The notes under the pieces were generated by a model that searched no databases, was not told the origin of the DNA, and saw only the letters and a list, made by a program, of their open reading frames with translations. Made by a program: the position numbers and the translations under genes. Positions 12,439 to 33,424 of a DNA stretch of 33,424 bases are shown here, piece by piece. Origin of the DNA: Actinomycetota bacterium (GTDB lineage Bacteria; Actinomycetota; Acidimicrobiia; Acidimicrobiales; WLNW01); assembly GCA_043738925.1 (NCBI GenBank), contig JAYUFA010000311.1, positions 1 to 33,424 of the forward strand. The letters run 5' to 3'. Numbering within the stretch: position 1 is the stretch's first letter; every line of letters starts with the position of its first letter.

Positions 12439-12439
12439 T

Positions 12440-12829: not shown

Positions 12830-12846
12830 ATACCCCCTATGGGTAC
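12830..12846. promoter_or_regulatory. CsoR operator 1 (ATACCCCCTATGGGTAC)
   Basis: TACC...GGTA pseudo-palindrome with C/G tracts, as for known CsoR/RicR operators; between promoter and copZ RBS. Confidence 0.8.
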
Positions 12847-12857
12847 CTACCTTGGCC

Positions 12858-12886
12858 ACTCTACATACGGGTGGGGGGTATTGCAA
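12858..12886 (-). promoter_or_regulatory. sigmaA-type promoter of copZ-copA-csoR with CsoR operator 2 in the spacer
   Basis: Minus strand reads TTGCAA (12886-12881), 17 nt, TAGAGT (12863-12858); the spacer is occupied by ATACCCCCCACCCGTAT (12865-12881). Confidence 0.75.
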
Positions 12887-12936
12887 CAGCTTCGGAAAGT
12901 TCGGCCCTCAGGTGCTGACATGGCGAAGCGCGTCAT

Positions 12937-12955
12937 CTACGACAGAATGTCGGAG
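12937..12955. promoter_or_regulatory. Putative BlaI-type operator (CTACGA-N7-TCGGAG)
   Basis: Matches the window-wide palindrome; directly abuts ATG 12956; contains CAGAAT 7 nt before that ATG. Confidence 0.65.
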
Positions 12956-13510: not shown

Positions 13511-14223
13511 TCGACTTCGGGCTGTTGGCCAGCATGTTGATCGCGCTCGGCGTTCCTTCGCTGCTCGCTCGATGGTGGCCGATTAAAAATGTGTCAGGTC
13601 GGGGTACGTTCGTCGACGGGGTATTTGGGCCACTCGGTGTTGGAATCGCTGTTGGGCGTATCACCGCACTGGCCCTGGACGACCCCGGCGCGCTCGGCCG
13701 ATTGTCGGACTTGCTCATCATCCGTAGCGGTGTCGAGTTCTGGCCAGGCTTGGGTGCCGCTCTGATCGTGTTGGCGGTCGGCGCCCGCCGCGCCGGAGAA
13801 CAGCCGTTGGAACGGATCGCGGCGTTCGGTCCGTTGTCTTTGGTTGCCTACGGCCTCTTTGAGGCGACGTGCCTCCTGCGCGGCGGTTGTTACGGCCCGT
13901 CAGCCAGACTCGGGCTGAGACCAGCTGGCTTGGGAACGACGATGCTGCCGGTCGGGATATTCATGGGAGTGGCCATGGTGATCGGTTCGTTCACGCTCAG
14001 ACTGGCGGGACGCCGAGGCGCTAGCGCCGTAGTTCTGACAAGTGGCGCGTTGGCGGTACTTGCATCAGTGCGGTCGGTGGCGTCGATCTGGCTGCCAAAG
14101 GTAAGCCCGGGTTTAACAAGGGCCCATCGCACGTCGCTCTTTGTAAGCGCAGGTGCGATGGTGGCGCTCGGCGCAACGATCGGGTCGCAGAGGCGACGAC
14201 GAGTAGTGGCGGGCGAGCGATGA
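13507..14223 (+). CDS. Lgt-like (prolipoprotein diacylglyceryl transferase-like) membrane protein, divergent
   Basis: GIAVGRI, LLIIRSGVEFWPGL and TCLLRGGCYG resemble Lgt motifs (IWxGGLxFxGG; GRxGCFxxGCCYG); ATGA overlaps on both sides. Confidence 0.55.
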   Translation: MIDFGLLASMLIALGVPSLLARWWPIKNVSGRGTFVDGVFGPLGVGIAVGRITALALDDPGALGRLSDLLIIRSGVEFWPGLGAALIVLAVGARRAGEQPLERIAAFGPLSLVAYGLFEATCLLRGGCYGPSARLGLRPAGLGTTMLPVGIFMGVAMVIGSFTLRLAGRRGASAVVLTSGALAVLASVRSVASIWLPKVSPGLTRAHRTSLFVSAGAMVALGATIGSQRRRRVVAGER

Positions 14224-15071
14224 ACGCGCCCATCGCGCTCGCAGTAGCCGCCGGTATGGTCGGAGCGATCAACCCGTGCGGTTTCTCGTTGCTGCCGGCG
14301 TACGTAAGTCTCTTTGTTGCTAGCGAAACGAACGATTCGCCGCTCGACCAGCGTCTTGTTCGAGCCGGTATCTCGTCGGTCTCGGTAACGGTTGGTTTCT
14401 TAGGTGTGTTCGTGACCCTGGGAGTTTTGCTCGATTCTGTTCTCCGTGCTGTCAGACCGTCTCTCCCGTGGTTCACGATGGCTGTCGGGGTTCTTATCGT
14501 CGGCGCAGGTCTGGCTGTCGTTTGTGGCAAACGAATTCCATTTCCGTCCGCATCCTTGCCGGCGATCTCGGGAAGGGGCCCGGCAGCCATGATTGTGTAC
14601 GGGATCGCCTACGCCATCGCCTCGCTCTCCTGCACACTGGGGCCGTTCTTGGCGGTTACCTCGACAGCGCTGGATCAATCAGTCGCGGAAGGGCTCGTTA
14701 CCTTCGCCGGGTACGCGATCGGCATGGGCACAATCATCGCCATCCTCGCAATCAGTGTCGCTTTCGCCCGCCCAGGTGCCAGTCGGCTGCTCCGAAGGAC
14801 GTCTCGTTGGTCGTCGAGGACCGGTGGGGTGTTGATGATTGCCAGCGGCACGTACGCGATCTGGTATTCCCGATGGGAACTAGGTGTGTATAACGGAGAT
14901 CTGAACCGCGATTCGGTTGTTCAATTTGGCGAGCGAGTCCGATCCAACACGATCGCACTTATCGAACGACTCGACCCGATAGCGATCGTCGCGATCGTCA
15001 TCGTCTCGTTCGGCTTCGTGTTGGCCTATACGATCAGCCGTCGAGCCAATCTTCAAAGAGATGCGACGTAG
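14220..15071 (+). CDS. ccdA: CcdA/DsbD transmembrane-domain protein
   Basis: INPCGFSLLPAY and SLSCTLGPF redox Cys pair; 6+ TM segments. Confidence 0.87.
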   Translation: MNAPIALAVAAGMVGAINPCGFSLLPAYVSLFVASETNDSPLDQRLVRAGISSVSVTVGFLGVFVTLGVLLDSVLRAVRPSLPWFTMAVGVLIVGAGLAVVCGKRIPFPSASLPAISGRGPAAMIVYGIAYAIASLSCTLGPFLAVTSTALDQSVAEGLVTFAGYAIGMGTIIAILAISVAFARPGASRLLRRTSRWSSRTGGVLMIASGTYAIWYSRWELGVYNGDLNRDSVVQFGERVRSNTIALIERLDPIAIVAIVIVSFGFVLAYTISRRANLQRDAT

Positions 15072-18393: not shown

Positions 18394-19450
18394 TCACTCG
18401 TCAAAGCGGGCTTCTGTTGCGGGGCGGGCCGAGTTCTGAAGCTGGGTTGCGTACGACGGTCGCAAGTAGGACCGCTGGGCGGACACAGTTGAAGAGCTCG
18501 TAAGGAGGCCTTGCGACTGGGGGAGGACCCTCCCGGCGACTTCGTATGGGCGGCGATGCGGGTCTCCATCGGCGGGTGCGTTGCAAAGAGCCGGTTGAAC
18601 CAGCCGTGCGCTCCCTTGGATTGCTTGTCGAGGGGGGACTCGATCCACAGGTGGGCGGTGGCGGCGAGGGCGTGACCGATCACGTTGGGATTAGCTCGGA
18701 GCTTTTCGAGGGCCGAGATGAGGCCGTCGGGATTCCGGGTGATAGCACGCCGGACACGTCGGCGAGGGCTTCGCGGCGGCGCGAGATCGCGAGCTGCATC
18801 GTTTTGGCGGCGAAGGGGGCGAGGATGATGAACACGAGGGCGAGGGTGTAGATCTGCGCGCCTTCGCGGTCGTTGTTGCGGCGACGGCCGCTGGTTCCGC
18901 CGAAGAGCAGCAGTCGCAGCCCGAAGTCGGAAAGCAATGCTACGAAGCCGACGAGGGTGACGGCGATGGTGCCGACGAGGATGTCGTAGTTGCGGATGTG
19001 GCTGAGTTCGTGGGCGAGGACGCCTTCGAGTTCGGCGCGGTCCATCAGGTCGAGCAGGCCGGTCGTCACCGCGATGGCGGCATGGTCAGGGTTGCGCCCG
19101 GTCGCGAATGCGTTGGGGGCGGGATCATCGACGATGAAGAGTCGAGGCTTAGGAAGCCCGACGCCCAGGCAGAGCCCGTCGATGACGTTGTGAAGTTGGC
19201 GGTATTGCGCTGGTTCGGCTGTCCGTCCGTGGGCGGCGGCGATGGCCAGCTTGTCGGAGTAGAAGTAGCTGCCCCAGACCATGGCCAAGACCACGATGAC
19301 CGCGATCGCGATCAACATGGGGCCGCCCGCGAACACCAGGTCGAAGACAGCCAATACAGCGGTGATTAACACGGTGAACCCGGCCATCAGGTACACGGTG
19401 CGGCGTTTGTTGCCGGCGATTTGCGCTAGCAGGTCATGACGTTCAGTCAT
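18394..19450 (-). pseudogene. htpX: HtpX/M48 zinc metalloprotease with two apparent 1-nt deletions
   Basis: PNAFATGRNP, HELSH, SRRREALAD; frame jumps at about 18744 into ITRNPDGLISALEKL...ATAHLWIESP...FATHPPMETRIAA and probably again at about 18548 (RIAA-L-YEVAG). Confidence 0.85.
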
Positions 19451-19519
19451 CGCTGTGTCGTCTAGTCGCGGAGCCCGCTGGGCTGTCCGAGCACACGGTC
19501 GGGTCAACGCTCATGCTCA

Positions 19520-20077
19520 TCAGAACCGGACGCTGACGGGTGCCGCGGCGCCGGGCTCAGACTGGAAGAGCTCCCGGATCCTGAAGTGCATGGGACCCGC
19601 GATAAGAGTGCGCGGGAACGTCTGGATACGCGTGTTGTAGCCGAGCACACGCTCGTTGTAGAACTGGCGCGAGTAGGCGACTCGGTCCTCGGTCGAGGTC
19701 AATTCCTCTTGAAGTGCCGAGAAGTTCTGATTCGCTTTCAGGTCCGGATACGCCTCGGCGACGGCGAAGAGGCTCTTCAGCGCGCCGGTGAGAACGTTCT
19801 CGGCTTGCCCTCGTTGCTGCGGCGAACCGCTCTGTCTGGCGTCGATGGCGTTCGCCCGCGCCTGAGTCACCGTCTCGAAGGTTCCGCGTTCGTGTGCGGC
19901 GTAGCCCTTGACCGTCTCGATCAGATTCGGGATCAGGTCGTGACGGCGTTTGAGCTGCACATCGATCTGCGACCAAGCGCTGTCGCACTGATTTCTGGCT
20001 CGAACGAGCCCATTGAACATCCATGCCAACATCAATAGGGCGAGCACCGCTATTGCACCAATCAGGATTGCGATCAT
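19520..20077 (-). CDS. lemA: LemA family protein
   Basis: AWSQIDVQLKRRHDLIPNL, AVAEAYPDLKANQNF, RQFYN, FP; GGGAG RBS; canonical position upstream of htpX. Confidence 0.93.
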   Translation of the reverse strand: MIAILIGAIAVLALLMLAWMFNGLVRARNQCDSAWSQIDVQLKRRHDLIPNLIETVKGYAAHERGTFETVTQARANAIDARQSGSPQQRGQAENVLTGALKSLFAVAEAYPDLKANQNFSALQEELTSTEDRVAYSRQFYNERVLGYNTRIQTFPRTLIAGPMHFRIRELFQSEPGAAAPVSVRF

Positions 20078-20285
20078 TCTTCGACTCCCTTGTTCTTCGA
20101 ATTGAGCGGCACGTGCCTGCGAGCCCGAGACGGCGGGGCTGCTGCCAGGCTGGCCCCACAACCATCGTCTGCCGAGGGCCGCGCCGCATCCGAGACAACC
20201 ACGGATCCGGCTTCGGGAAATCCACCTACCGGGGTCATCCCAGACCCTGCTTTCCGAGACCGAAACGGGGGGCAACTTCCTGGCG

Positions 20286-20915
20286 CTATTTCTCCGCCAT
20301 TCGGGCGAGTTCTTGGCGCTGGCGCTCAGCATCAGCACGGGCCCGAGCAGCCTCGGCCTCCTCGCGTCGGCGGCCTTCATCTGCGACGAGTTGTACGAGT
20401 TCACCGCTCACCTTCAACGCCGGTGTCGCAAGTTCGGCCCGGACTTTTGTGATAGCGACCGTCTCTGTTTCTAACTGTTTGCCCAGCGCCGCAAGCCGCG
20501 CTTGTTCGCTCGCAAGTTCCTTTCCGAGCCGCTCGGTGTCTTGTCGCTCGGCCCGAAGCTCATCGACCTCGTCCGAAGCGGAGCCCACGAGCACCGAGGC
20601 GTAAACTTCGGGGGCGGCCGACAAAGATCCACCCGATCCGTCAAACGAATCGACCAGGTCAGCAAGCGTGATCTGCTGAACGTAGATGTATGAGTGGACC
20701 GCAGCATCAACAACGTCTTTGTTGATAGTCGAGACCGCTGCAGACCGGTCCGCGATTGCGGCCTCAGTCACCTTCACTTCATCGGTCACCTGCTCAAGCC
20801 TGAGTTTGGTCTCCATGCTCTGCTCGTTGATGCGTTCGGCCCGCTGAATGAGAGCTTCACGGTTCGTCTCGTGCATACCGGCCCTGCCGAAGCGCACGCG
20901 GTCGACATAACTCAT
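20286..20915 (-). CDS. Coiled-coil protein, probably a truncated PcsB/CwlO-like stalk
   Basis: Heptad-rich E/A/R/Q sequence with central DAAVHSYIY..LADLVDS break; no signal peptide and no catalytic domain before the TAG. Confidence 0.5.
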   Translation of the reverse strand: MSYVDRVRFGRAGMHETNREALIQRAERINEQSMETKLRLEQVTDEVKVTEAAIADRSAAVSTINKDVVDAAVHSYIYVQQITLADLVDSFDGSGGSLSAAPEVYASVLVGSASDEVDELRAERQDTERLGKELASEQARLAALGKQLETETVAITKVRAELATPALKVSGELVQLVADEGRRREEAEAARARADAERQRQELARMAEK

Positions 20916-21827: not shown

Positions 21828-22676
21828 CTAACTGAGTGGCTCCAGTGTCGAAGGTGGAGGTGTCGATTGCCAGTAACTCACCGAGTAACGAAATCGCGCC
21901 GACCGCGTGACCGCAGTTTGTGTCAGCCATCCGCATTCTTCGAGGGTGCTCGCCGCTGTCGGATTTATGTAGGCGATCCGAACTGATCTCGGTTGGGCTT
22001 CGATGGATGCCCGCAGACATTCGAGCATGGAACGCATGGTGTGCAGGCCGAAAGGATTGAACAGCACAACAACGGTCACCTCGGAGAAGTCAAGAGTCGC
22101 AGCATCACCGGTGAGAACCGTCGTCGGCGACTTCTTGGCCGGTCGTCGGCTCAGGTTAGAGCGAGCTGCCTCCGCGATCAGTGGGTCACATTCGACACCG
22201 ATGACCTGGCGGGCTGGACCGCGAGCAGCCATGACCAGTACTCGTCCCAGTCCGCACCCGACGTCCATGACGACATCATTCCTCGTTGGACCCAGGGTGC
22301 GCAGCACTTTGCGGGCTTGGCCGTAGGCCAGCGGTACATAGAGGTGAACATCCTCGCCGGCGGTCACTCCCCGGGGAACGAGCACAGTTTCTGTTTTGAT
22401 ACCTCGCCATCGATCCTCTGCGCTGGCGGTGAGCCCGCGCCAAAGGCCGAACAGTCGTCGAAGGGCGCCGAACTCCCGAGTTCGGTCCGGTATCCGAGTT
22501 GCACCACGCCCACGTAAGCCATCTCGCCGGTCCTCCTCGCTGCAGCGGCCCTTCACGCGCACCGCATAGAACAAATGTCGGAACGCCCAGCGACAAGCCC
22601 GCCGGTCCGAGCAAGATCCGCGGCGGACCCGATCGACAACGTTCTTTGGGCCATGACGTCGAGCATCTCTCCACAC
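21828..22676 (-). CDS. Class I SAM-dependent methyltransferase (start uncertain, may be shorter)
   Basis: VMDVGCGLGR motif I, GVECDP motif II, GDA, LFNPF, IAYINP. Confidence 0.75.
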   Translation of the reverse strand: MWRDARRHGPKNVVDRVRRGSCSDRRACRWAFRHLFYAVRVKGRCSEEDRRDGLRGRGATRIPDRTREFGALRRLFGLWRGLTASAEDRWRGIKTETVLVPRGVTAGEDVHLYVPLAYGQARKVLRTLGPTRNDVVMDVGCGLGRVLVMAARGPARQVIGVECDPLIAEAARSNLSRRPAKKSPTTVLTGDAATLDFSEVTVVVLFNPFGLHTMRSMLECLRASIEAQPRSVRIAYINPTAASTLEECGWLTQTAVTRSARFRYSVSYWQSTPPPSTLEPLS

Positions 22677-22849
22677 TAACTCCTACGAAATGTAGTTGAG
22701 TTGATCCATGAGGGAGTCCACGCACAGCCAGCATACCGCCCAAGGATTCGACGCACAGGCTTCCGCGATTGTGGGCTGGCGTTGAGGACGCTCACTCCGG
22801 CGCGGGCCAACCGGCGTAGAGTCCATCCGAGGTTGATGAGCCACTTAAC

Positions 22850-23268: not shown

Positions 23269-25218
23269 TCAAGGCGGGTACGAGATCGTGTGTTCGATGC
23301 GGTGGCCGGGGTCGATGATTGTTTCCTTGGCGATCCGTTTCGTGATCGGGTCGATCCACATTTTGATCCAGATGTTCGACGCGGGCACGGTGAAGGCGAT
23401 GACGTTGAGGCCTTGGTCGTCGGCGAGTTGGTGGACGTCATCGCCGCCGTTGCCGAACGGTTCTTGGGAGATGAAGTCGGGTCCGGAGATGCGGGTGTTC
23501 CCGGCATCCGCTGATGCTGCGGAGTTGCTGGTGACCGATTCGGTGAGCGAAATGTTGCCCGCCTGTTTCGTGGCGGCGACCGCGGCGGCGAGCAGCGGCC
23601 CTCCGTCAGGTCCGGGGGACCATTCGATGCTGACGTGCGCGGTGCCGCCGGCGTAGTCGCTTTCGCCGACTGTGACGGCGAGTTCGGTGGTGCCAGGTTG
23701 CCATTCGTGGCTGATGGTTTCGCATCCTTGCCCGCAGTTGCGGGCGGTGATGTCGATGTCGCTGCCGTCGGGTTGTTTCCCGCTGATCGTCGCCCGTCCG
23801 GTCGGTGGGGGTTGTCCGCCGGGTTGCAGTACGCGTATTTGGAGTTGGTGGTCGACCGCGGCGACGAGGACCAGATTGTTACCGGCAAGATCGGCACCCC
23901 AGGTAGCGTTCGCGATGGGCGGCGGCCCGAGCACGAACGAACCGGCCGAGCTTGGTGGAGCGGTGACGGCGAGCGCGACGCTCGCGGCGAGCACGGCGGT
24001 GACGGCCAGAAGTTCGACCCGGACAATCGTCCGAAGCGTGGAGGGTTTGTTGTCCACGTTGCGTAGCCCTTTGGCGCGGGCGAGATTGGCAAGTACCAAC
24101 GCGGCCACAACCAGTGCGAGTTTGATGAGGAGGATCGTGCCGTATCGGGTGGTCCAGAGCTGGTGGATGCTGTCGAATCGGGTGAACGCGACAATCGTGC
24201 CAATGCCGATGGTGACTGCGACGACCGGCAGCGCGAATCGGCTGTAGCGGCGGGCGGCGATGCCGAATGCGGTCCGTGCCGGGCGGTCGATCGGTCTGCG
24301 AGTCAGGTGAAGGAGCGCGCCGGCCCAGGCTGCACTACCGATGACGTGTGCGGTGCCGAGCGGTGTTGCCCACCAACGGGAGTCGTCACCGGAATGACCC
24401 CGCCACACCATGAGGGCGAGCGCGGCTGCGACGGGTAGGGCGGCGATGCGGCGCAGTCGGCTGCTGCGAGCGGCGACAAGCGCAAGCCCGGTGAGTGATC
24501 CGGTGGCGACCATCAACCGGTCGGCGCGGGTGGCAAGCGCACCGGACCAGTCGGTGAGGCTGCCTAGTACGTGGCGGCGATGCAGTTCGAGCGCGACGGC
24601 GGACATGACTCCGACAAGCGCGAAGGCGATCGATGGGGCTGCCGGTGATTTCGGTGATGTTGGTGCGGGCCGGTGTGTCGCCCAGATGAGGCGTTCGCTG
24701 GCGAGGCACCCGAACACGAATGCCAGTCCGGCAACAATTTCGAATTGGATGAGGGCGTCGGCCCAACCGAACCGTCCCTGCGACGGTCGTGTTCGGGTAT
24801 CGACCGCGCCGGGTGGCAGGTCGGTCCCGACGGCGAAAGCGAATTCGCCTTCGGTGGTGTGTCCGTCTCGGGCGAGGACTTGCCAGGTGACGAGGTAGAT
24901 GTCGCGGGCCAGGGTGGGCACGTTGGCGCGGATGCGGGTACCGCCCGGGTCGGTGCCAACGAAGGCCAGGTCGATCTTGGTACCGGTGGCAGTCCGCAGA
25001 CTGAGATGCGGTGTTCCGTCGATCCGCTCGGAGAAGTCGAGCACGACCTCGTCCGGGCCGGTACTGAGCCGGGCACCGGTAGCGGGGGAGGTTCGTACGA
25101 GGAAACTGTGGGCATTGGCGGGAGCCGCCAGACCGAGACCAGCGAACACAACGCAAAAGACAACGGCAAACACGCGACCCACCCGCAGAAGCAACGACCT
25201 GTGGTTGATATTCGGCAT
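23269..25218 (-). CDS. CopC-CopD fusion copper resistance/uptake protein with C-terminal extracytoplasmic domain
   Basis: Signal peptide ending ANA-HSFLVRTSP (N-terminal His of CopC), DGH, then CopD TMs (GHS, HVIG..WAG, RRYS, TRYG.ILLIK). Confidence 0.87.
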   Translation of the reverse strand: MPNINHRSLLLRVGRVFAVVFCVVFAGLGLAAPANAHSFLVRTSPATGARLSTGPDEVVLDFSERIDGTPHLSLRTATGTKIDLAFVGTDPGGTRIRANVPTLARDIYLVTWQVLARDGHTTEGEFAFAVGTDLPPGAVDTRTRPSQGRFGWADALIQFEIVAGLAFVFGCLASERLIWATHRPAPTSPKSPAAPSIAFALVGVMSAVALELHRRHVLGSLTDWSGALATRADRLMVATGSLTGLALVAARSSRLRRIAALPVAAALALMVWRGHSGDDSRWWATPLGTAHVIGSAAWAGALLHLTRRPIDRPARTAFGIAARRYSRFALPVVAVTIGIGTIVAFTRFDSIHQLWTTRYGTILLIKLALVVAALVLANLARAKGLRNVDNKPSTLRTIVRVELLAVTAVLAASVALAVTAPPSSAGSFVLGPPPIANATWGADLAGNNLVLVAAVDHQLQIRVLQPGGQPPPTGRATISGKQPDGSDIDITARNCGQGCETISHEWQPGTTELAVTVGESDYAGGTAHVSIEWSPGPDGGPLLAAAVAATKQAGNISLTESVTSNSAASADAGNTRISGPDFISQEPFGNGGDDVHQLADDQGLNVIAFTVPASNIWIKMWIDPITKRIAKETIIDPGHRIEHTISYPP

Positions 25219-25236: not shown

Positions 25237-25255
25237 CTACTAAGCGGTATCGTAG
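25237..25255. promoter_or_regulatory. Putative BlaI-type operator (CTACTA-N7-TCGTAG)
   Basis: Palindrome extended by AT on both sides, 18 nt upstream of copC/D ATG; TACAAT -10-like hexamer on - strand at about 25257-25262. Confidence 0.75.
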
Positions 25256-25367
25256 ATTGTAGCTGTCGGGGTTGCTGATACCCGGCGGTGAGTTGCCTCC
25301 AGCCGTGAAGGAGCTGTCTACGAGTGTTGCGCATGACGACCACCGGACACTCGATTTCGCTGTCACC

Positions 25368-25646
25368 GGGATGGCGATCTGCAGGGGCACCGACGTGGCC
25401 ATCGAATTGTCTGATATCCCGCGACTTTCGGCCGAGCTTGGTGTCGCCACCGCGGTGCGGTTGGCGCGGCGCACGTTCCGCACGATCCTGCAGAACCTTG
25501 GCTGGGCGTTCGGGTACAACATCGTGCTTATCCCCGTCGCCGCGTTCGGTCTGCTCAACCCGATCCTCGCCGGCGCAGCAATGGCGTTCTCGAGCGTGTC
25601 GGTCGTCGGTAACAGCCTGCGCCTCTACCGGTTCGGCGAGCGGTGA
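25368..25646 (+). pseudogene. 3' remnant of a second Cu P1B-type ATPase
   Basis: [17 protein letters not shown]...[10 protein letters not shown]...[19 protein letters not shown]: only the last about 90 aa, degenerate, with no DKTGT or CPC. Confidence 0.85.
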
Positions 25647-25653: not shown

Positions 25654-26088
25654 ATGGTGACCTCGATCCATGCCGGTCGTCGGACGGTTTGGGTCGAACT
25701 GGCCGATCGATGGCCGGCCTGGACTTTCGCGGTCGTCGCCGGTGGCCTCGGTGCGATAGCGCTGGCCGTGTGGGGTTTGCCCGCGTGGGATTTCCACGGG
25801 CCGTTTCATCGTTTCGGTGTGATGGACCCGCTGTGCGGCATGACCCGAGCGGTGCGCTTCGCAGCCAGGGGACAGCTTCGTTCGGCCTGGCGGTACAACC
25901 CCGGCGCGTTCGTGCTGGCAGTAATCGCGATCGTCGGTGTCCCACGGATCATCGCCGGTACCGTTTTCGGCCGGTGGTGGGCGGCGCGTCTCGGCTCGAA
26001 GCGCGTCTGGATCACGATCGGCATCGTCGCCGTCGTTGCCCTGGAAATCAACCAGCAACTCCATGCCACCCTGCTGCGTGGCCCGTGA
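25654..26088 (+). CDS. DUF2752 family membrane protein
   Basis: P...FGVMDPLCGMTRA...AWRYNP motif; ATG 7 nt after the remnant's stop. Confidence 0.78.
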   Translation: MVTSIHAGRRTVWVELADRWPAWTFAVVAGGLGAIALAVWGLPAWDFHGPFHRFGVMDPLCGMTRAVRFAARGQLRSAWRYNPGAFVLAVIAIVGVPRIIAGTVFGRWWAARLGSKRVWITIGIVAVVALEINQQLHATLLRGP

Positions 26089-26723
26089 GCGACAACCAAT
26101 CGGCCGTCGGCCCCGTCGCTGCATCGGACAACGGGTTTGAGCCGGTCGTCGAGGAACCTGCGGCACCGGTACCCCACCGCTCCCGCAGGTGCCGGACCGG
26201 TGTTGTCATCGCCGGAATCATTACGACGATCGGGATCGTCGCAACCGGTGCTGCCCTAGCAGCAAGGTTGAACACGCCCGCTGGAGGGCCGCTCGTCGGG
26301 CACACCGCGCCGTCGTTCACGCTATCGGCCCTGGCCGCCGGGGAGCCCGATGTGTCGCTCGATGCGTTCCGGGGGAGGCCGATGGTGATCAATGTGTGGG
26401 CGTCGTGGTGTGTGCCGTGTCGACGCGAGATGCCCGACTTCCAAGCCGTACACGTCCTGCTCGGTGACCGGGTCGCGTTCGTCGGGATCGACCATCAGGA
26501 CGCCAGAAGCTCTGCGATCGCCTTCGCCCACGAAACCGGAGTCACCTACCCATCGGGTTTCGACCCGCAAGGCACCGTCGCCGCCGACTACGGGCTGTTG
26601 GGCCTGCCGACGACGGTTCTTGTCGCGTCGGACGGTCGGGTTGTTGCCGAAGTGAAAGGTGCCCTCACCCGCGAGAAGCTCCTGAAACTCATCGCGGACC
26701 GCCTCAAGGTAACGGCGGCCTGA
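26085..26723 (+). CDS. TlpA-family thiol:disulfide oxidoreductase
   Basis: GTGA overlap; TM anchor; INVWASWCVPCRREMP; GLPTT. Confidence 0.88.
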   Translation: MSDNQSAVGPVAASDNGFEPVVEEPAAPVPHRSRRCRTGVVIAGIITTIGIVATGAALAARLNTPAGGPLVGHTAPSFTLSALAAGEPDVSLDAFRGRPMVINVWASWCVPCRREMPDFQAVHVLLGDRVAFVGIDHQDARSSAIAFAHETGVTYPSGFDPQGTVAADYGLLGLPTTVLVASDGRVVAEVKGALTREKLLKLIADRLKVTAA

Positions 26724-26795
26724 CCGACCTCGACGGCTGGGTACGGGCACCGAACACGGCATCGTTGACGTATCCGGATGACCGGCACGCGCCCA

Positions 26796-27500
26796 CTACG
26801 GCACGGTGCTGTCCGTCGGTGACGGTCCGCTGCGGTACTTGCCGTTCTTGCTCGTGACCGTCTCCCCGTTCAGGACCCGCTGCAGAACGTCGTCCAGGGT
26901 TGTGGGGCCGACTGCGCCGATCAGGCGGGCCATGACCCGCCCGTCGGGGGCGACAAGGAACGTTTCGGGCACCCCTCGGACACCGAAGTCGATCGCGGTG
27001 CGACCGTCGGGGTCGTTGATCAACGGGTAGGTCAGCCCGAACTCCTCGCGAAACCGGCGGGCGTTCGAGACGGTGTCGCTGTAGAGGATGCCGACGAGCA
27101 CGACACCGTCAGCTTGATGCTGCTGGACGAACCGTTGCAGATCGGCCGCTTCTTCCCTGCATGGCACACACCATGACGCCCAAAAGTTGATCACGATCAC
27201 TGCCCCGGCAAGCCGTGACGAGTCAAGGGTCGTGCCACCCTGAATCGTCGGTAGCACGAACGCGGGCATCGCCCGACCGATCAGCGGTGACGGCGCAACC
27301 TGCGCCCGGTTCAATCCGCGGGCGAGCACGCTACTGAACCCAATCACACCAATCGTCACAGGGATAGCAAGCCACCGCAAACCACGACGCCGACGCGAGA
27401 GACCACGTGGCGAATCAGCCCGTGACCCCGCGGGCACCACCTCCGGCTCGATCACAGCGTCGTCAACGGAGGGTGGAGGCGAGTCCCGTTCGGCAACCAT
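26796..27500 (-). CDS. TlpA/CcmG-like thiol:disulfide oxidoreductase
   Basis: TM anchor, PSPLIGRAMPAF, INFWASWCVPCREE, FGVRGVPETF (CcmG/DsbE-like). Confidence 0.88.
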   Translation of the reverse strand: MVAERDSPPPSVDDAVIEPEVVPAGSRADSPRGLSRRRRGLRWLAIPVTIGVIGFSSVLARGLNRAQVAPSPLIGRAMPAFVLPTIQGGTTLDSSRLAGAVIVINFWASWCVPCREEAADLQRFVQQHQADGVVLVGILYSDTVSNARRFREEFGLTYPLINDPDGRTAIDFGVRGVPETFLVAPDGRVMARLIGAVGPTTLDDVLQRVLNGETVTSKNGKYRSGPSPTDSTVP

Positions 27501-27510
27501 GACCACGAAG

Positions 27511-27529
27511 CTACTATCTAAAGTCGTAG
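27511..27529. promoter_or_regulatory. Putative BlaI-type operator (CTACTA-N7-TCGTAG)
   Basis: GCTACTATCTAAAGTCGTAGC, 10 nt upstream of the tlpA/ccmG-like ATG. Confidence 0.75.
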
Positions 27530-27641
27530 CCGCTGACAGGGCTGGGCGCTGTTCGATGCTACAACGCCAACGCAACAGCTTCTCCAACGTCCAACCATCT
27601 CGGAGCCCCGCAAGCGGACGTGACTCGGGCCGCGGCTATTG

Positions 27642-27660
27642 CTACTATGTTACCTAGTAG
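27642..27660. promoter_or_regulatory. Putative BlaI-type operator (CTACTA-N7-TAGTAG, perfect arms)
   Basis: 35 nt upstream of the DUF2933 ATG. Confidence 0.78.
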
Positions 27661-27695
27661 TCATCGGTGTGGTGACCTCATCCGAAGGAGTTCTC

Positions 27696-27983
27696 ATGAA
27701 ATGCATGAACCGTAAGGTGCTGATTGGCCTCGTCGCGGTCGCCGGACTGCTGTTCTTTGCCGCCCCTTCGGCGCGGGGTGCGCTCCCGCTGCTCGTGGCT
27801 CTCGCCTGCCCGTTGTCGATGGTCTTGATGATGGGTGGCATGGCCAAGGTGATGAGCGGCAAGACCGATGACAGCAAGAACTCATGCGCTTCCGGTGGCC
27901 CGGCGCCAGAGGAAATCGTCGCTGCGAAGGATGCAGAGATCGCCCGGCTCAACAGCCTGCTGCAGCAACAGCCAACCCGCTAA
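27696..27983 (+). CDS. DUF2933 family small membrane protein
   Basis: AAGGAG RBS at 27685-27690; LLVALACPLSMVLMMGGM signature; C-terminal short coiled coil. Confidence 0.78.
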   Translation: MKCMNRKVLIGLVAVAGLLFFAAPSARGALPLLVALACPLSMVLMMGGMAKVMSGKTDDSKNSCASGGPAPEEIVAAKDAEIARLNSLLQQQPTR

Positions 27984-27994
27984 ACCCGGCGTTT

Positions 27995-28477
27995 CTAGCC
28001 GCCCTGTTGCCTGTCGTTGATCGCCGCTGCGACCAGTTCCCGGTCCGAATCCGATGGGGGACCGGGCCGTTGGGCACGCCACCGTACGAACGCGACGCCC
28101 AGCCCGGTAGCGCAACCTAGGAACGCTACGACTGGGAGTAGCCAGACGAGTCCGACGATCCCGTGGGGTGAGGGTGACAGCAGAATGTCGGGCCCGAACC
28201 TGGTCGCCATTGCTTGGCGGATCGTGTTGTCGCTTTCACCTTCGGCGATCCGCCGTTCCAGGTCGGCGCGAATGTCACGCGAAGCTGGGGCTTCAGATTG
28301 GGCGACGGACTGGCCGGCGCATGTCGGACACTTGATCGTCGCGGCGAGCCGCTCGACTCGTTCCCCGGTTGTTCGCGGTGCCCGATTACCGACCGCAGCG
28401 ATCGTGAGTGCGATGGCGAGAACGACGATCGACAGAAACCACACCCAGGCTGTCGTGTTGCTGCGAATTCGCTTCAC
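27995..28477 (-). CDS. ccmH: Cytochrome c-type biogenesis protein CcmH
   Basis: IKCPTCAGQSVAQS, RFGPDILLSP, WLLP. Confidence 0.9.
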   Translation of the reverse strand: MKRIRSNTTAWVWFLSIVVLAIALTIAAVGNRAPRTTGERVERLAATIKCPTCAGQSVAQSEAPASRDIRADLERRIAEGESDNTIRQAMATRFGPDILLSPSPHGIVGLVWLLPVVAFLGCATGLGVAFVRWRAQRPGPPSDSDRELVAAAINDRQQGG

Positions 28478-30456
28478 GGCTGGGTGACCGTAACTAGCTC
28501 GTCGGGCACGTCGATGACGGAAACGGCATCTGGCTGGGTGAGCCGAGATGGGTGGCGAGGTTTACGGTTCGGGATGATCGACAGGGCTGTCCCGAGGGCC
28601 ATAACCGCGCCGCCGGTCCACAGCCACACGGCGAGCGGCATGATAACCACGATGACACCGATCGGGCCTTGGGTGGGGAGGTCGACGATGCTGAGGTAGA
28701 CGTCTTCGGACAGCGAGTTGGCGATCGCCGGGGTGCCGACCGTCTGGGATGATCCGTTGAATTGCTGCAACGCCGGTTTCAAAAGGCGGTCACCGTCAAC
28801 CAAGATGAGAGCGCGGCGCTCGATGAGGGATCGGCCGATGACCTGGTCGGTCGAACGGAATTCGAGGGTGTGACCGGCGAACACGACCGGTTTGCCGGGT
28901 TCCAGTTGGAGTTCGATCCGCCGACTGTACGCACCCGCTGCGGTCACCGCGACGGCGAGCATCACGAACCCGAGGTGAACGACCATCCCACCACCCGACG
29001 CCCCCAGCAGCCCTCGCAGGCCGTGGCGGCGAATATTCATGGAGAGCTGTCGGGTGGCGGCACCCGCAGCTGCACCGCCGAGCGCGAACCCGACCGCCGG
29101 AACGAGACCGCGAGCGCCGAAAAGCACAGCGGCGGCGAGGACGGTTGCTGCGCCGGCTACCGAGGTGGTCAGCCGTTGGCGGAGCAGCGCGGCCGACGAC
29201 ATGCGCCACGGCAGGATCGGGGCGACGGCCATCAGCGTGAGCAGGGCGAGACCGATCGGTATCGCCATCCGATCGAAATAGGGTCTGCCGACCGAGATGC
29301 GGGTGCCTCGCAGCGCCTCAATGACGAGCGGGAACACCGTGCCCAACAGCACCACGAACGCGAACAGGGCGAACAGGGCGTTGTTGATCAGGAACGCGGC
29401 CTCACGCGACGCGACTGCGTCGATCGCTCCGGCGGAACGCAGTCGTTGCCCGCGCCAGGCGATCAGACCGACGCTGGTCAGCACGATCACGGTGAAGAAC
29501 CCGATGATCGCCGGGCCGATGTTGCTTTTGCTGAACGAGTGGACCGAGTCGAGCACCCCGGACCTGGTGAGGAATGTTCCGAGGATCGTGAGGCTGAACG
29601 TGGCGCACAGTAGCGACAGGTTCCACACCCGTAACATGCCGCGCCGTTGTTGGGCGAGGACCGAGTGGATGTAGGCGGTGGCGGTCAGCCAAGGGAGGAA
29701 ACTGGCGTTTTCGACCGGGTCCCACGCCCAGAAACCTCCCCAGCCGAGCACCTCGTAACTCCACCAGGAGCCGAGCAGGATCCCGACGGTCAGAAAGCCC
29801 CAGGCCATCAGCGTCCACCGGCGGGTGATCACCAACCATCCGTCATCGACGCGTCCGGTGACCAACGCCCCGATCGCGAACGCGAACGGTACAGAGAAAC
29901 CGACGTACCCGAGATACAGGATCGGTGGGTGGAACGCCATCAGGATGTGGTTCTGCAGCAGCGGGTTCGGGCCGGGACCGTCCAGCGGGATCGGTGGTGC
30001 GGTGAGGCGGAACGGGTTTGATGGGCCGGCCATTAACCCGAAGAAGAAGGCGCAGATGGCGAACAGTGCGCACATCGCCCAACCGACCAGCGGATCGTCG
30101 AACCGGTGACGGAACCTGACGACCACCGCGATCAGATAGCCGGACAGGATCAAGGCCCATAGCAGGATCGAGCCTTCCAGCGCCGACCACATCGCCGCGA
30201 CGTTGAACAACGCCGGGGTCCGTGAACTCCCGACGTGGGCGACGTAGGCGAGGTGGAAGTCGCGGGTGATCAACGCCCGTTCCATCGCCACGACCGCGAG
30301 CACCGCCCCGAACCCGACGAGCAGCGCGTACCGTCTCGCCCAACGCAGCTGGCGAACATTCCCGGTACGGGCACCGATCGCCGCGTTGAACGCGCCGACG
30401 ACCGACCCGCCGAGCCCGAGCGAAACGCCCATCAAGCCGATCGCCGCGTTCAACAC
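28474..30456 (-). CDS. ccmF: Cytochrome c heme lyase subunit CcmF/NrfE
   Basis: WSALEGSILLW, GPNPLLQN, HPP, WWD motif WSYEVLGWGGFWAWDPVEN, TRSGVLDSVHSF; GTG at 30456 with GGAGG RBS. Confidence 0.95.
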   Translation of the reverse strand: MLNAAIGLMGVSLGLGGSVVGAFNAAIGARTGNVRQLRWARRYALLVGFGAVLAVVAMERALITRDFHLAYVAHVGSSRTPALFNVAAMWSALEGSILLWALILSGYLIAVVVRFRHRFDDPLVGWAMCALFAICAFFFGLMAGPSNPFRLTAPPIPLDGPGPNPLLQNHILMAFHPPILYLGYVGFSVPFAFAIGALVTGRVDDGWLVITRRWTLMAWGFLTVGILLGSWWSYEVLGWGGFWAWDPVENASFLPWLTATAYIHSVLAQQRRGMLRVWNLSLLCATFSLTILGTFLTRSGVLDSVHSFSKSNIGPAIIGFFTVIVLTSVGLIAWRGQRLRSAGAIDAVASREAAFLINNALFALFAFVVLLGTVFPLVIEALRGTRISVGRPYFDRMAIPIGLALLTLMAVAPILPWRMSSAALLRQRLTTSVAGAATVLAAAVLFGARGLVPAVGFALGGAAAGAATRQLSMNIRRHGLRGLLGASGGGMVVHLGFVMLAVAVTAAGAYSRRIELQLEPGKPVVFAGHTLEFRSTDQVIGRSLIERRALILVDGDRLLKPALQQFNGSSQTVGTPAIANSLSEDVYLSIVDLPTQGPIGVIVVIMPLAVWLWTGGAVMALGTALSIIPNRKPRHPSRLTQPDAVSVIDVPDELVTVTQP

Positions 30457-30513
30457 GACCCGCGGCCTCCGCCAGGTCCGACGTGCCCGTCGATGCGCCC
30501 ACAAACCGTTCTC

Positions 30514-30532
30514 ATACTAAGTAGCTTAGGAG
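30514..30532. promoter_or_regulatory. Putative BlaI-type operator (ATACTA-N7-TAGGAG)
   Basis: Two mismatches to consensus; in the ccdA-ccmF intergenic gap. Confidence 0.6.
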
Positions 30533-30549
30533 CAACGGGGGTGATGTGT

Positions 30550-31272
30550 TCAAAAAGGTGGCCAACCGAAGCGGGCGAACGTTCGTTGTAACGGAATGAA
30601 AAACGTGCGCCACACCCCGGTGACGAACAGCAAACCAACCCCGACAAGCAGCATGCCACCCAGTCGTTCCACCCCTCTGGCGTGTCGGCGCAGCCACCTC
30701 GTCGAGTTCTTCGCCCGGCCAAGGCCGAGAGCGAGCCCGACAAACGGCAGGCCAAGCCCGACCGAATACAACAGCAGCAACACCGCACCCCACACCACGG
30801 TGCGGGTCGCTGCCGCAGCGGTCAGGATGGTCGCCAGCACCGGACCGATACACGGTGCCCAACCGAACGCGAATGCGGTACCCAACAGAAACGCCGAGCG
30901 CGGACCAGGCCGAACATGGTCCAACAGGCGTCGTTCCCGGTTCAGGAACGGCACCCGCAGAACCCCGAGCATCATGAGTCCCATCACAATGATCGCAACC
31001 CCGGCAACCCGGGTGATGACCGGCACTCGGCGCAACAACACCGAGCCGATCAGAGCGAACGACACGCCGAGCGCGGTGAACACCAACGTGAAACCGGCAA
31101 CGAAGAACAACGACGCCCGCAACGCGATCTTGCGTGACGCCCGACGGTCGAGTTCGCTCATCGGGAGACCAGAGATGAACGACACGTATCCGGGCAACAA
31201 CGGAAGGCAGCACGGAGACGCAAACGAGATCGCCCCGGCGACAAGCGCGAGGAACGGCAAAATGAACACCAT
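30550..31272 (-). CDS. ccdA: Cytochrome c biogenesis protein CcdA
   Basis: SFASPCCLPLLPGY and FAFGWAPCIGPVL; YSVGLGLPF. Confidence 0.92.
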   Translation of the reverse strand: MVFILPFLALVAGAISFASPCCLPLLPGYVSFISGLPMSELDRRASRKIALRASLFFVAGFTLVFTALGVSFALIGSVLLRRVPVITRVAGVAIIVMGLMMLGVLRVPFLNRERRLLDHVRPGPRSAFLLGTAFAFGWAPCIGPVLATILTAAAATRTVVWGAVLLLLYSVGLGLPFVGLALGLGRAKNSTRWLRRHARGVERLGGMLLVGVGLLFVTGVWRTFFIPLQRTFARFGWPPF

Positions 31273-31291
31273 CAACTATAAAGCCTAGTAG
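31273..31291. promoter_or_regulatory. Putative BlaI-type operator (CAACTA-N7-TAGTAG)
   Basis: One mismatch; flanked by CAT/ATG; directly abuts ccdA ATG. Confidence 0.7.
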
Positions 31292-31304
31292 ATGGTTGGA
31301 GGGT

Positions 31305-32246
31305 TTAGCTGAGGCAGAAGTTCGGCATTGTCAGCACTACCCAGAAGTTCGCGACAACCACAGCGACCGAGAACAACATCCCCGCCCACAGGGCGCTCAA
31401 CGACCCGAACGCCATCACCGTGGAGCGTGGTGTGCTGGTGGGTGCCGGGTGGTCCAACGCGGTTATCCGTTCGACCACCGTCTCCAACCCACCGAACGCA
31501 GCGACATCAACCGACAGACCGGCGAGAGCTACCCCGACCAACGCCCGCCGGGTGATGTGGCGTGCTTCGACCTCGGTGCCCGAAGCTTCCTCGTCGGCCC
31601 ACCGTTCCAACGAACACCGCAACTGATCGGTGGCAATCCGGGCCCACGGGAAAGCCCGCAACCCGCATTCCGCGGCGGCGGCGAGACGCAACAGCAGGTG
31701 ATGTCGATGCTGCAGATGGGCCTGCTCATGGCGCAACACCGCATCCAACTCGGCGCCCGACAACTTGGCGATCAACGTGTCGGACACCACGACCGCACCG
31801 CCATACGCGGCGACGCACAACGCCACCGGGTCAGGCGACGTAACAACAACAACCGGATGCCCTGCGACGGTCGTCGGGCGACCGAGCAACGCGACTTCGG
31901 ACATGGCGTGCTGGGCTAAACGGGCACGCCGGTAGCCGAGCGACACGGCCATCGGCAACATCAACGCGCCAGCCGTCGAGACCCACCCGATCCACGGTGC
32001 GCCGATCACCGCGTGGCTCGCCATCCGTGCGCATCGTGCAGCCAAGCCGTGCGCACCGACCGCCCGAAGCACAACCGGTGCTCCCAGCGAAACGGCGACC
32101 AATTCTGTCGCGACGAGCGCACCGACCAGCGACACCGCGATTGTTTTCGCGGCGAGCGCCGGATGAACGGTGCGGAGCCAACCGCGAGCCAAGGCAGGTG
32201 CCGCGCCCAGGACAACGGCGAGCATTGCGAGCAAGAACACGGTCAC
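31305..32246 (-). CDS. M56-family (BlaR1-like) membrane zinc metallopeptidase without penicillin-binding domain
   Basis: 3 N-terminal TMs, ELDAVLRHEQAHL (HExxH), ERWADE, C-terminal TM; GTGA overlap with blaI. Confidence 0.87.
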   Translation of the reverse strand: MTVFLLAMLAVVLGAAPALARGWLRTVHPALAAKTIAVSLVGALVATELVAVSLGAPVVLRAVGAHGLAARCARMASHAVIGAPWIGWVSTAGALMLPMAVSLGYRRARLAQHAMSEVALLGRPTTVAGHPVVVVTSPDPVALCVAAYGGAVVVSDTLIAKLSGAELDAVLRHEQAHLQHRHHLLLRLAAAAECGLRAFPWARIATDQLRCSLERWADEEASGTEVEARHITRRALVGVALAGLSVDVAAFGGLETVVERITALDHPAPTSTPRSTVMAFGSLSALWAGMLFSVAVVVANFWVVLTMPNFCLS

Positions 32247-32599
32247 TGGGCCAGCGTCCTGCGCAACTGCGCCCGATCGGCATCGCTCAACTGCCCGACG
32301 AACTGGGTGAGCACAACCGGCCGATTCTCAACCGCACCCAACACAGACGCCATTGTTGAGGCGGTGCGAGCCTCGCGGGTCTGCACCGGATGGTAGGCGA
32401 ACGCCCGACCGTCACGGCGACGCTCCAGCACTCCCTTATCGCACAGGTTCGACAGCACCGTCATCACCGTGGTGTACGCCAACTCGCGGCGGGCCACGAG
32501 CACGTTGTGGACCTCACCGGGCGTCATCCAACCCGTCGAATCCCACAGAACGTCGAGAACCTCTGCCTCCAACGGTCCGATGCCTTTGCCAGATGCCAC
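32243..32599 (-). CDS. blaI: BlaI/MecI/CopY family transcriptional repressor
   Basis: GPLEAEVLDVLW, LAYTTVMTVLSNL..KG, RRDGRAFAY; GTG at 32599 with AGGA RBS. Confidence 0.9.
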   Translation of the reverse strand: MASGKGIGPLEAEVLDVLWDSTGWMTPGEVHNVLVARRELAYTTVMTVLSNLCDKGVLERRRDGRAFAYHPVQTREARTASTMASVLGAVENRPVVLTQFVGQLSDADRAQLRRTLAQ

Positions 32600-32619
32600 A
32601 GACCAAATCCTACCACCAC

Positions 32620-32638
32620 CTACTAAGATCGATCGTTC
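32620..32638. promoter_or_regulatory. Putative BlaI autoregulatory operator (CTACTA-N7-TCGTTC)
   Basis: One perfect and one 4/6 half-site, 20 nt upstream of the blaI start. Confidence 0.55.
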
Positions 32639-32645
32639 TGCGAGG

Positions 32646-33424
32646 TCAGGACTCGCCCTGAGACGGTCGGAATCTGCGCGACGCAACCAAATGTCGCTGG
32701 TTGAAGTCCTCCAACCGGTTTCCCAGCCACCACCCGCATCCCAATGCGGCGAGCCCACCGGCCGCGTCGAGCCAGAAATGGTTCGCAGTGACAATGATGC
32801 CGAACAACGTTGCGATCGGGTAGAAGGCGCTCAACCAACGAATCCACCGCCGTCGCCGACCTGCGAGCGGCCACAACGCCAGAACGCACCACGTCGACCA
32901 CGCCATATGCAGGCTTGGCATCGCCGCGTACTGGTTCGAGATCCGAGTCATGCTTCCCGAATCGAAACTCCACAACCCGCCATCCACTTCCAGGGTGTCA
33001 ACGAAATCGATCCCTGCAGGAGCATTCGCCGTCGCGGCGAGTGACGCGCCCCCGTACGGTCCGGTGGAGCTGAGGAGCCGGGGTGGCATCAGCGGATACA
33101 ACATGAAACCGACGAGCGCGAGCGCCGTCGTGCAGGCCAGGGTGTTGCGCCAGCGCACGAACCGGACGCGAGAGAACCGGAAGAGGCACACGAACGTGAC
33201 GATCGTGACGACGAAATGCACGGTCCCGTAAAACACGTTCCAGAACTGCAAGAAACGGTGGTGGCCGAGGAACAGCTGCTGGACGTCGCGCTCACGGTAG
33301 AGCCCGAGCACACGCTCGAAACGCACCACCTGCAAGGCATGACGAAACGGGGCGAGTGGAACACCGCTGGCGGCGAGATGAAACGAGCCGAAACGATTCC
33401 GGATGGCGCTGTACAGGGCGTAGA
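32646..33424 (-). CDS. PAP2 superfamily (PAP2_3 / Aur1-like) membrane phosphoesterase, 5'-truncated by window edge
   Basis: YPLMPPRL, NQYAAMPSLHMAW, TANHFWLDA; frame open to window end. Confidence 0.87.
   Translation of the reverse strand, partial: YALYSAIRNRFGSFHLAASGVPLAPFRHALQVVRFERVLGLYRERDVQQLFLGHHRFLQFWNVFYGTVHFVVTIVTFVCLFRFSRVRFVRWRNTLACTTALALVGFMLYPLMPPRLLSSTGPYGGASLAATANAPAGIDFVDTLEVDGGLWSFDSGSMTRISNQYAAMPSLHMAWSTWCVLALWPLAGRRRRWIRWLSAFYPIATLFGIIVTANHFWLDAAGGLAALGCGWWLGNRLEDFNQRHLVASRRFRPSQGES

Follow-up and report, generated by a model that had tools for sequence, protein, structure and literature searches.

The stretch of DNA analysed here (the window) is a complete 33.4-kb contig (G000:C311) from an Acidimicrobiia-like metagenome-assembled genome, the near relatives of which carry the labels Actinomycetes or Ilumatobacteraceae. 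On its minus strand it encodes a BlaI-family winged-helix repressor of 118 amino acids (32243-32599; PF03965, E-value 2.5e-27) together with a BlaR-type membrane metalloprotease of 313 amino acids that is devoid of a sensor domain (31305-32246), and that has four transmembrane (TM) helices and the motifs HEQAH (residues 173-177) and ERWAD (residues 214-218). The stop codon of the repressor and the start of the protease overlap by 4 nucleotides (nt; 32243-32246). As set out below, it is very probable that this BlaI/BlaR-type switch has a copper and envelope-thiol regulon under its control, and a pair of cysteines in the protease is a plausible site, judging from its sequence relatives, through which the signal might be sensed.

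The minus-strand series opens with a PAP2 gene (32646-33422, -) that precedes the repressor. Behind the protease gene, after a 29-nt spacer, lies ccdA (DsbD_TM; 30550-31275, -), which codes for a membrane electron conduit for thiol reduction, and then a ccmF/nrfE-type haem lyase gene (28474-30504, -) and a ccmH/nrfF gene whose product carries a CPTC motif (27995-28477, -). These are followed by a gene for a small DUF2933 membrane protein on the opposite strand (27696-27983, +) and by a gene for a TlpA/DsbE-type thiol:disulfide oxidoreductase with a WCVPC motif (tlpA1; 26796-27500, -, with its ATG at 27500). Beyond it are a DUF2752 gene (25654-26088, +), which overlaps a second tlpA-type gene by 4 nt (tlpA2; 26085-26723, +), a copC-copD fusion gene (23269-25218, -) and a methyltransferase gene (21828-22676, -), while a copper P-type ATPase with an HMA domain is encoded further left in the window (10018-12549). 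The ccmF of this island is the second copy in the genome; the other sits with ccmE on a different contig (G000:C150:10397-12795), and the two products share 58% identity. Because the housekeeping ccmE-ccmF genes are located elsewhere, the CcmF, CcmH, CcdA and DsbE proteins of the island look, from their sequences, like a second, inducible set. ResB was not found in this genome, which is 87% complete. A sequence-only reading of the same DNA had proposed a regulon of disulfide reductases; ccdA and tlpA are indeed part of the candidate set, which is wider, with CopCD also included.

We then looked at the DNA between these genes for signs of a shared operator. The hexamer CTACTA occurs seven times in the window against 0.89 expected, a count that none of 100 shuffles reached, and six of the seven copies fall between genes of the island or close to its promoters. 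The copies resolve into a 19-bp dyad, CTAC-N11-GTAG, with the ideal form CTACTA-N7-TAGTAG. Exact matches to CTAC-N11-GTAG number three (0.05 expected; 0 of 100 shuffles reach three): one between the start of copCD (25218) and the plus-strand genes (25237..25255, +), one 10 nt upstream of the tlpA1 ATG (27511..27529, +), and one, a perfect CTACTA-N7-TAGTAG, that precedes the DUF2933 start by 36 nt (27642..27660, +). When one mismatch to CTACTA-N9-GTWG was allowed, three sites were added, giving six distinct sites (10 matches counted over both strands, against 0.38 matches expected) that are promoter-proximal in the island. Operator-like sequences are found in the 29-nt spacer before ccdA (CTACTAGGCTTTATAGTTG; 31273..31291, -) and 21 nt upstream of the repressor GTG (CTACTAAGATCGATCGTTC, with a degenerate right arm; 32620..32638, +), and a weaker candidate with one mismatch lies upstream of the methyltransferase gene (CTCCTACGAAATGTAGTTG; 22680..22698, +). 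Ten relatives, the most distant at about 35% protein identity, keep the motif in the ccdA spacer. Furthermore, across 51 loci of relatives whose protease carries the two cysteines described below (502 kb), exact dyads number 12 against 0.85 expected, and all 12 lie at the edges of copCD, ccdA, DUF2933, tlpA, Cu-ATPase or blaI genes. From this distribution we infer that the repressor would bind the dyads. A sigma-70 promoter scan of 26500-33424 returned 0 sites, and the 9 sequencing runs from 3 studies that were listed for this DNA included no RNA run.

Two first guesses at an operator, GTAGGTGGTGGTAG and the palindrome AGAACGATCGATCT, had no convincing second copy, and the form CTAC-N3..6-GTAG, with two sites only (9638 and 22683), was set aside for the N11 dyad. 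Short dyads of the form CTACA/G-N3-TGTAG are present at 9638-9650 and 22683-22695 (two against 0.22 expected), one of them 14 nt upstream of an ArsP-type permease/DUF1980 gene pair that comes after the Cu-ATPase and the other before the methyltransferase gene; by their sequence, the same repressor or a related one may use them. In a relative with 90% identity (L022:8972-11202), ccdA is cut short after about 90 codons and copCD is directly next to it, with a dyad at the junction, implying that the island has been rearranged between close strains.

The repressor itself has a single cysteine (C53) and no CxC. Its best NCBIfam match is CopY_TcrY (TIGR02698, E-value 3.5e-11), which speaks for a scheme in which the repressor senses copper directly, like CopY, and the protease merely turns it over; the score of 43.5 bits is, however, far under the cut-off of 121.95, and the closest solved relative is the Mycobacterium tuberculosis BlaI Rv1846c (2G9W; E-value 1.9e-17, with query residues 5-118 aligned on 5-121), not lactococcal CopR (2K4B; E-value 0.0035), the matches to staphylococcal BlaI/MecI or CopR ranging from 4e-4 to 4e-3. 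Among 49 repressors encoded beside proteases with the cysteine pair, Cys53 is kept in 7 and is Trp in 29, most have a core free of cysteine, and a CxC tail is seen in none. Judged by these sequences, a CopY-like role in sensing metals or thiols is out of the question for the repressor of the Cys-pair family, in agreement with the earlier assignment of the window's repressor as something other than a CopY, and we consider direct sensing by the repressor very improbable. Since the partner repressors mostly lack cysteines, the protease must be the sensor, a conclusion that we regard as well supported.

One residue of the repressor does stand out for its conservation: Phe100 is kept in 48 of the 49 partners. 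BlaI is cleaved at Asn101|Phe102 (PMC9834060, in part; this and other sources so marked are cited from the accessible portions of their text). Phe100 is therefore a candidate P1' residue of a cleavage site, the equivalence being one of position only, which fits such a cut and does not prove it.

The protease was assigned by Pfam to PF01435 Peptidase_M48 (37.2 bits, above the cut-off of 20.3), with PF05569 Peptidase_M56 at 21.5 bits, under its cut-off of 31; the same scan of the protein found no transpeptidase or penicillin-binding domain, and it scores no higher than 24.1 bits with the NCBIfam HtpX equivalog, for which the cut-off is 341. When 1.84 billion cluster representatives were searched exhaustively with HMMER, 1623 relatives passed E <= 1e-3 and 305 passed E <= 1e-10; the top 150 are almost all about 310 amino acids long. 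Matches in the ESM Atlas were to actinobacterial M48/M56 clusters only, and no named mycobacterial relatives were gained from a word-indexed profile search. From these data we built a family alignment of 151 full-length sequences (285-335 amino acids), comprising the query, its closer homologues and 50%-identity cluster representatives, with shorter fragments dropped. The gluzincin catalytic residues are essentially invariant across it: H173, E174, E214 and D218 are present in 151 of 151 and H177 in 150, the zinc-binding and catalytic HEQAH motif being encoded at 31716..31730 (-).

The protein ends in MPNFCLS, 7 residues past the last hydrophobic helix, so that the shortness after the last TM helix and the missing penicillin-binding domain that the sequence-only reading had pointed out both hold. 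Family resemblance is all that would recommend a canonical beta-lactam-responsive BlaR/BlaI pair. The absence of that domain, the end of the protein 7 residues past TM4 and the lack of any beta-lactamase or penicillin-binding protein gene among the scanned open reading frames (ORFs) of the window contradict it, and we give it next to no credence. The idea that a sensor-less protease is in itself special has nonetheless to be given up, since this is the commonest BlaR architecture (PMC13492132, in part): a transpeptidase domain is present in about 6% of some 15,000 M56 proteins, and more than 90% of annotated BlaR-like proteases have no antibiotic-binding domain, the signal being unknown for nearly all of them (PMC13492132, in part). 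Moreover, a copper-activated sensor-less protease, PetP, has already been described (bioRxiv 10.1101/2020.07.31.226407, in part).

To see where the cysteines might lie, a structural model of the protease was generated using AlphaFold2 from 142 sequences (predicted local distance difference test score 93.2; predicted template-modelling score 0.90). Its helices span residues 2-19, 29-62, a short stretch at 66-76, and 84-121, followed by the protease core and a final helix at 273-311. The top structural match found by VIA-align is Staphylococcus aureus BlaR1 (8EXT_A; Z 12.8, root-mean-square deviation 3.9 A over 215 residues), although this Z is near the value that helical bundles can attain through arrangement alone; among the same candidates, other M48 proteases reached Z 7-9.5 and unrelated chains at most 4.5. 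Model residues 3-255 are co-linear with BlaR1 1-290. In the solved BlaR1, the loop EL1 (residues 56-96, between helices 2 and 3) is extracellular and acts as a signalling loop, helix 3 connects it to the cytoplasmic protease, and the fourth TM helix leads outward to the sensor domain (PMC9834060, in part).

In the window protease the corresponding outer loop comprises residues 61-84 with the short helix at 66-76 (31995..32066, -). It contains Cys72 (codon 32031-33) within the sequence LAARCARMASH, between model helices 29-62 and 84-121. The C-terminal end, M307-P-N-F-C311-L-S plus the stop codon (31305..31325, -), contains Cys311 (codon 31314-16). Because the fold is co-linear with a BlaR1 of solved topology, and because the protease must reach a cytoplasmic repressor and each of TM3 and TM4 spans the membrane a single time, Cys72 and Cys311 are both predicted by homology to be on the outer face, opposite the protease domain, as the sequence-only reading had supposed. 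The positive-inside rule does not discriminate here, with 3 Arg/Lys in each short loop. That reading had placed one cysteine in the TM2-TM3 loop and one at the extreme C-terminus, and both positions are right, though the protein has five cysteines in all (72, 144, 194, 211 and 311) and not two. The remaining three belong to the cytoplasmic domain and are not family-wide, with C144 kept in 10 of 151 sequences, C211 in 24, and C194 outside the five commonest residues at its column. The same genome encodes a second BlaI-family gene (L104; G000:C303:1-835), followed by the N-terminus of a BlaR-like protein that runs off the contig; the TM2-TM3 loop of that protein has no cysteine and its locus is divergent from an ABC transporter, which makes it a within-genome contrast to the Cys-pair system.

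The two outer-face cysteines, in turn, are widely kept. Of the 151 sequences, 142 have Cys72, 129 have a cysteine among their last 8 residues, and 128 have both; a further 14 have Cys72 alone, one has the C-terminal cysteine alone, and 8 have neither. The surroundings of the pair are shared as well. In the 128 both-Cys proteins, the last cysteine is followed by exactly two residues (C-x-x-end) in 100; 87 have an Arg at +2 and 54 a Met at +3 of Cys72, and 58 have a Met at -4 of the last cysteine. The window protease shows all four features alike. The EL1 motif can be written G64-x3-L68-A69-x2-C72-x-R74-M75 and the C-terminal motif of the family M-x3-C-x-x-COOH; in our reading of the alignment, the conserved G64, L68, A69 and C72 appear spaced like one face of a helix. 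By this measure the two cysteines named at the outset are family features and more than chance.

We also examined the loci of relatives. The set comprises 98 loci besides the window's own, 19 of them from related genomes (22 of 61 genomes matched) and 79 from the best 80 of 491 matches in a collection of genome contigs; L002 and L039 are duplicates, as are L004 and L040, and L002, from the unpublished genome G047, adds nothing beyond L039. Their ORFs were labelled by phmmer with the window proteins, the loci were classed by the two cysteines, and a copper or thiol gene was counted when it lay within 6 kb. Among the 53 both-Cys loci, 44 have a copper or thiol gene, 33 have ccdA/tlpA and 21 have copCD or a Cu-ATPase gene, compared with 5, 0 and 5 of the 31 loci with neither cysteine. 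None of the five Cys72-only loci, nor the single locus with only the C-terminal cysteine, has any of these genes, and of eight loci in which the protease N-terminus is missing, two have a copper or thiol gene, in both cases ccdA/tlpA, and none has copCD or a Cu-ATPase gene. Among both-Cys loci of at least 8 kb the figure for a copper or thiol gene rises to 30 of 32. A Pfam scan of 38 neighbours in eight contrast loci found no thiol or copper family; these neighbours include MurJ, VanW, GAPDH, an M23 peptidase, COX1/COX3 and others. The connection between the cysteine pair and the ccdA/tlpA setting that had been suspected from the window alone is thus seen in the relatives too. In one relative that has Cys72 and no C-terminal cysteine (L071:4417-6833), the gene adjoins cytochrome oxidase subunits I and III, a setting reminiscent of the respiratory genes that mycobacterial BlaI is reported to control.

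Taken together, these observations lead us to an account in which a copper and envelope-thiol regulon is under the control of a BlaI/BlaR-type switch, with the protease itself as the sensor and copper-triggered thiol chemistry at the cysteine pair as its input; as a whole, we put this at a little better than an even chance. Under this scheme, a repressor dimer would bind the 19-bp dyads CTACTA-N7-TAGTAG at blaI, ccdA-ccmF-ccmH, tlpA1, DUF2933 and the divergent region between copCD and DUF2752-tlpA2. Copper outside the membrane would bridge both thiolates as Cu(I), perhaps together with Met75 and Met307, or would oxidise them to a disulfide. EL1 and the TM3 helix, the link to the protease domain, would then shift, as they do on beta-lactam binding in BlaR1, the active site would open, and the repressor would be cut, probably before Phe100. 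The induced CcdA, the TlpA/DsbE reductases, the spare CcmF/CcmH haem lyase and CopCD might in this way repair and protect a thiol-dependent cytochrome c maturation, and the induced reductases may also re-reduce the sensor. Two thiolates are enough for Cu(I) in known sensors.

Copper is favoured as the signal by the CopCD and Cu-ATPase genes that form part of the neighbourhood, which, as gene content, point to it, and by analogy PetP points in the same direction. Low-coordination, Cys-rich Cu(I) sites have been noted (PMC11672702), and Cu(I) binds thiols and catalyses non-native disulfides, impairs c-type cytochrome maturation and induces DsbD/DsbE-type reductive pathways (PMC4600104; bioRxiv 10.64898/2026.10.17.759849; both in part). 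The seemingly second, inducible set of CcmF, CcmH, CcdA and DsbE in the island points to copper as well.

The main rival is a general sensing of the envelope thiol-redox state that is not specific to copper, in which the pair becomes oxidised when the supply of reductant from CcdA/TlpA falls short and more reductase is induced as a result. A pure redox switch of this kind fits the data nearly as well as copper does: ccdA/tlpA are the genes most tightly linked to the pair (33 of 53 loci against 0 of 31), the operon right behind the protease has thiol and haem-lyase functions only, and an Arg near a cysteine, as at +2 of Cys72, would favour a reactive thiolate. It accounts less readily for the 21 of 53 both-Cys loci with CopCD or Cu-ATPase genes within 6 kb, or for the dyad that stands before copCD in the window and beside CopCD or Cu-ATPase genes in relatives, and in PetP, the one characterised sensor-less relative whose signal is known, that signal is copper (bioRxiv 10.1101/2020.07.31.226407, in part). 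We therefore take the general redox switch to be unlikely, while treating it as a serious competitor.

Several observations weigh against the copper-responsive cysteine-pair account. At the repressor's own promoter the site is only half a dyad, with a good left arm. Seven dyads of this type also occur in three loci whose protease lacks both cysteines (three in L065, three in L066 and one in L095), and the dyad therefore marks the repressor family and not the signal. The 14 members with Cys72 alone show that the pair can be incomplete. In a FastTree phylogeny of the 151 aligned proteins, 3 state changes fall on Cys72 and about 9 on the C-terminal cysteine; repeated loss of the latter from proteins that retain Cys72 means that a full pair is not required. 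That the two cysteines are lost together could not be demonstrated, there being too few independent pairs (sign test p = 1). The His and Met residues near the pair are kept in fewer than half of the members (M75, for instance, in 56 of 151). A Foldseek search of the model against the PDB found nothing at E <= 0.001, with BlaR1 best at 0.08. Finally, the both-Cys loci are mostly from Acidimicrobiia and the neither-Cys loci mostly from Streptosporangiales, so the difference in context tracks phylogeny and amounts to an association without independent replication.

Some of the same evidence bears on a different possibility, namely that the two cysteines form a permanent structural disulfide that staples TM4 to EL1 as a substitute for the absent sensor domain, or have separate roles, and that the signal arrives through a partner protein, the state of the membrane or a cytoplasmic cue. 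Cysteine pairs outside the cytoplasm often have a structural function, the window codes for a VKOR-type oxidase, the family includes the 14 members in which Cys72 has no C-terminal partner, and what CenR, PvmS and the mycobacterial BlaR respond to is likewise unknown. Yet thiol reductases and copper genes accompany the pair, relatives in other contexts lack it, and the loop that holds Cys72 is the signalling loop in BlaR1, which together make a structural role improbable to our minds. More tentatively, and with rather less confidence than we place in the copper-triggered scheme as a whole, the outer-face pair may be a reversible copper/thiol switch, in which case a sensor-less BlaR-type protease would for the first time have a defined input device, with TlpA/CcdA re-reducing the pair in a feedback loop and the EL1 cysteine as the ancestral sensing residue.

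The system bears comparison with several known ones. The nearest in design is PetR/PetP of Synechocystis sp. PCC 6803, which likewise pairs a BlaI-family factor with a four-TM protease that has no C-terminal sensor domain, encoded by overlapping genes. PetP, a sensor-less M48/M56 protease, degrades PetR solely with copper, both in vivo and in E. coli extracts, and the TM2-TM3 loop residues M53 and M58, in a loop of 14 residues, are proposed as its copper ligands (bioRxiv 10.1101/2020.07.31.226407, in part). By that description, the window protease differs from PetP in having one cysteine in a 24-residue loop and one C-terminal cysteine, and in having a single Met (M75) in the loop where PetP has two. 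The regulons differ as well, petE, petJ and slr0601-0602 representing a cofactor switch in the accessible account of PetRP, and the thiol reductases, haem lyase and CopCD of the window a stress defence; in addition, the two systems belong to different phyla.

The mycobacterial BlaI/BlaR pairs (Rv1846c/Rv1845c; MAB_2415c/2414c) are related through the repressor, which matches Rv1846c over its full length, and their BlaR also has no sensor domain and a signal that is unknown (PMC5473688; 10.64898/2026.08.03.742534). The mycobacterial BlaI regulon, however, takes in blaC, ATP synthase, cytochrome bd or energy metabolism and not copper or thiol genes (PMC13492132; PMC5473688; both in part). With S. 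aureus BlaR1/BlaI (8EXP-8EXT) the window pair shares co-linear TM1-3 and gluzincin domains with HEXXH and EXXXD motifs, and an EL1 that lies outside between helices 2 and 3, while Phe100 of the window repressor is a candidate counterpart, by position, of the P1' Phe of BlaI (PMC9834060, in part). It differs in having no penicillin-binding domain and an EL1 of 24 residues against 41, and identity is 10-12%. CopY and TcrY are likewise winged-helix proteins with a PF03965 domain and are linked to copper genes, but their metal site is a C-terminal CxCx4CxC or CxC (PMC11672702), which the window repressor lacks; its inactivation would be by proteolysis and not by metal binding.

Further comparisons concern the regulon and the protease architecture. 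Copper-induced ScsB/C/D and DsbD/DsbE/DsbC systems are governed by other regulators. Like the island, ScsB/C/D and the Cu(I)-induced DsbD/DsbE/DsbC set a DsbD/CcdA-type conduit and thioredoxin-like reductases against copper stress (PMC3322552; bioRxiv 10.64898/2026.10.17.759849; both in part); the window differs in being regulated by a BlaI/BlaR pair and in adding a second CcmF/CcmH. CenIR of Clostridioides difficile and PvmSR of Pseudomonas aeruginosa also have a BlaR-like protease without a transpeptidase domain, but CenR carries a disordered tail of 100-plus residues that the window protease does not have, and the regulons described consist of cell-envelope hydrolases or virulence genes; no cysteine pair is reported for CenR or PvmS in the accessible parts of the texts describing them (PMC13492132; 10.64898/2026.08.03.742534).

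In the literature searched, which did not extend to subscription papers, we found neither a conserved EL1/C-terminal cysteine pair, a disulfide, CcdA or TlpA tied to a BlaR-like protease nor a BlaI/BlaR pair governing ccdA/tlpA/ccm/copCD genes. The family offers a concrete and testable input site of two residues, a 19-bp candidate operator and a coherent regulon. If the proposed mechanism is true, regulated proteolysis would be linked to extracytoplasmic copper and thiol chemistry in Actinomycetota, and the second CcmF/CcmH/CcdA/DsbE set found in copper islands would be explained as a spare for a copper-poisoned pathway. The EL1 cysteine would then be ancestral in a large actinobacterial clade that numbers at least 128 clusters at 50% identity and may include relatives for which a signal has long been looked for.

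Several further features of the window were also noted. A plus-strand open frame just upstream of DUF2752-tlpA2 (25263-25646, +) matches only the last ~85 residues of a copper P-type ATPase, with 62% identity to residues 752-835 of the 10018-12549 product, and by appearance is a truncated ATPase remnant; relatives have an intact ATPase in this position. A second thiol module, divergent from the Cu-ATPase (12485-15071, +), comprises a TlpA-like gene (12485-13510), an unassigned ORF and a gene for a CcdA-like membrane protein (14025-15071, +) with 33% identity to CcdA, and the window scan found no CTAC-N11-GTAG site ahead of it. At 2806-4527 (+) a disulfide-forming VKOR domain is fused to SPW repeats, an oxidising counterpart of the reductases of the same island. 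Lastly, a LemA protein followed by a second M48 (HtpX-like) protease is encoded at 18680-20404 (-), a separate and common pair that is unrelated to the BlaI switch.

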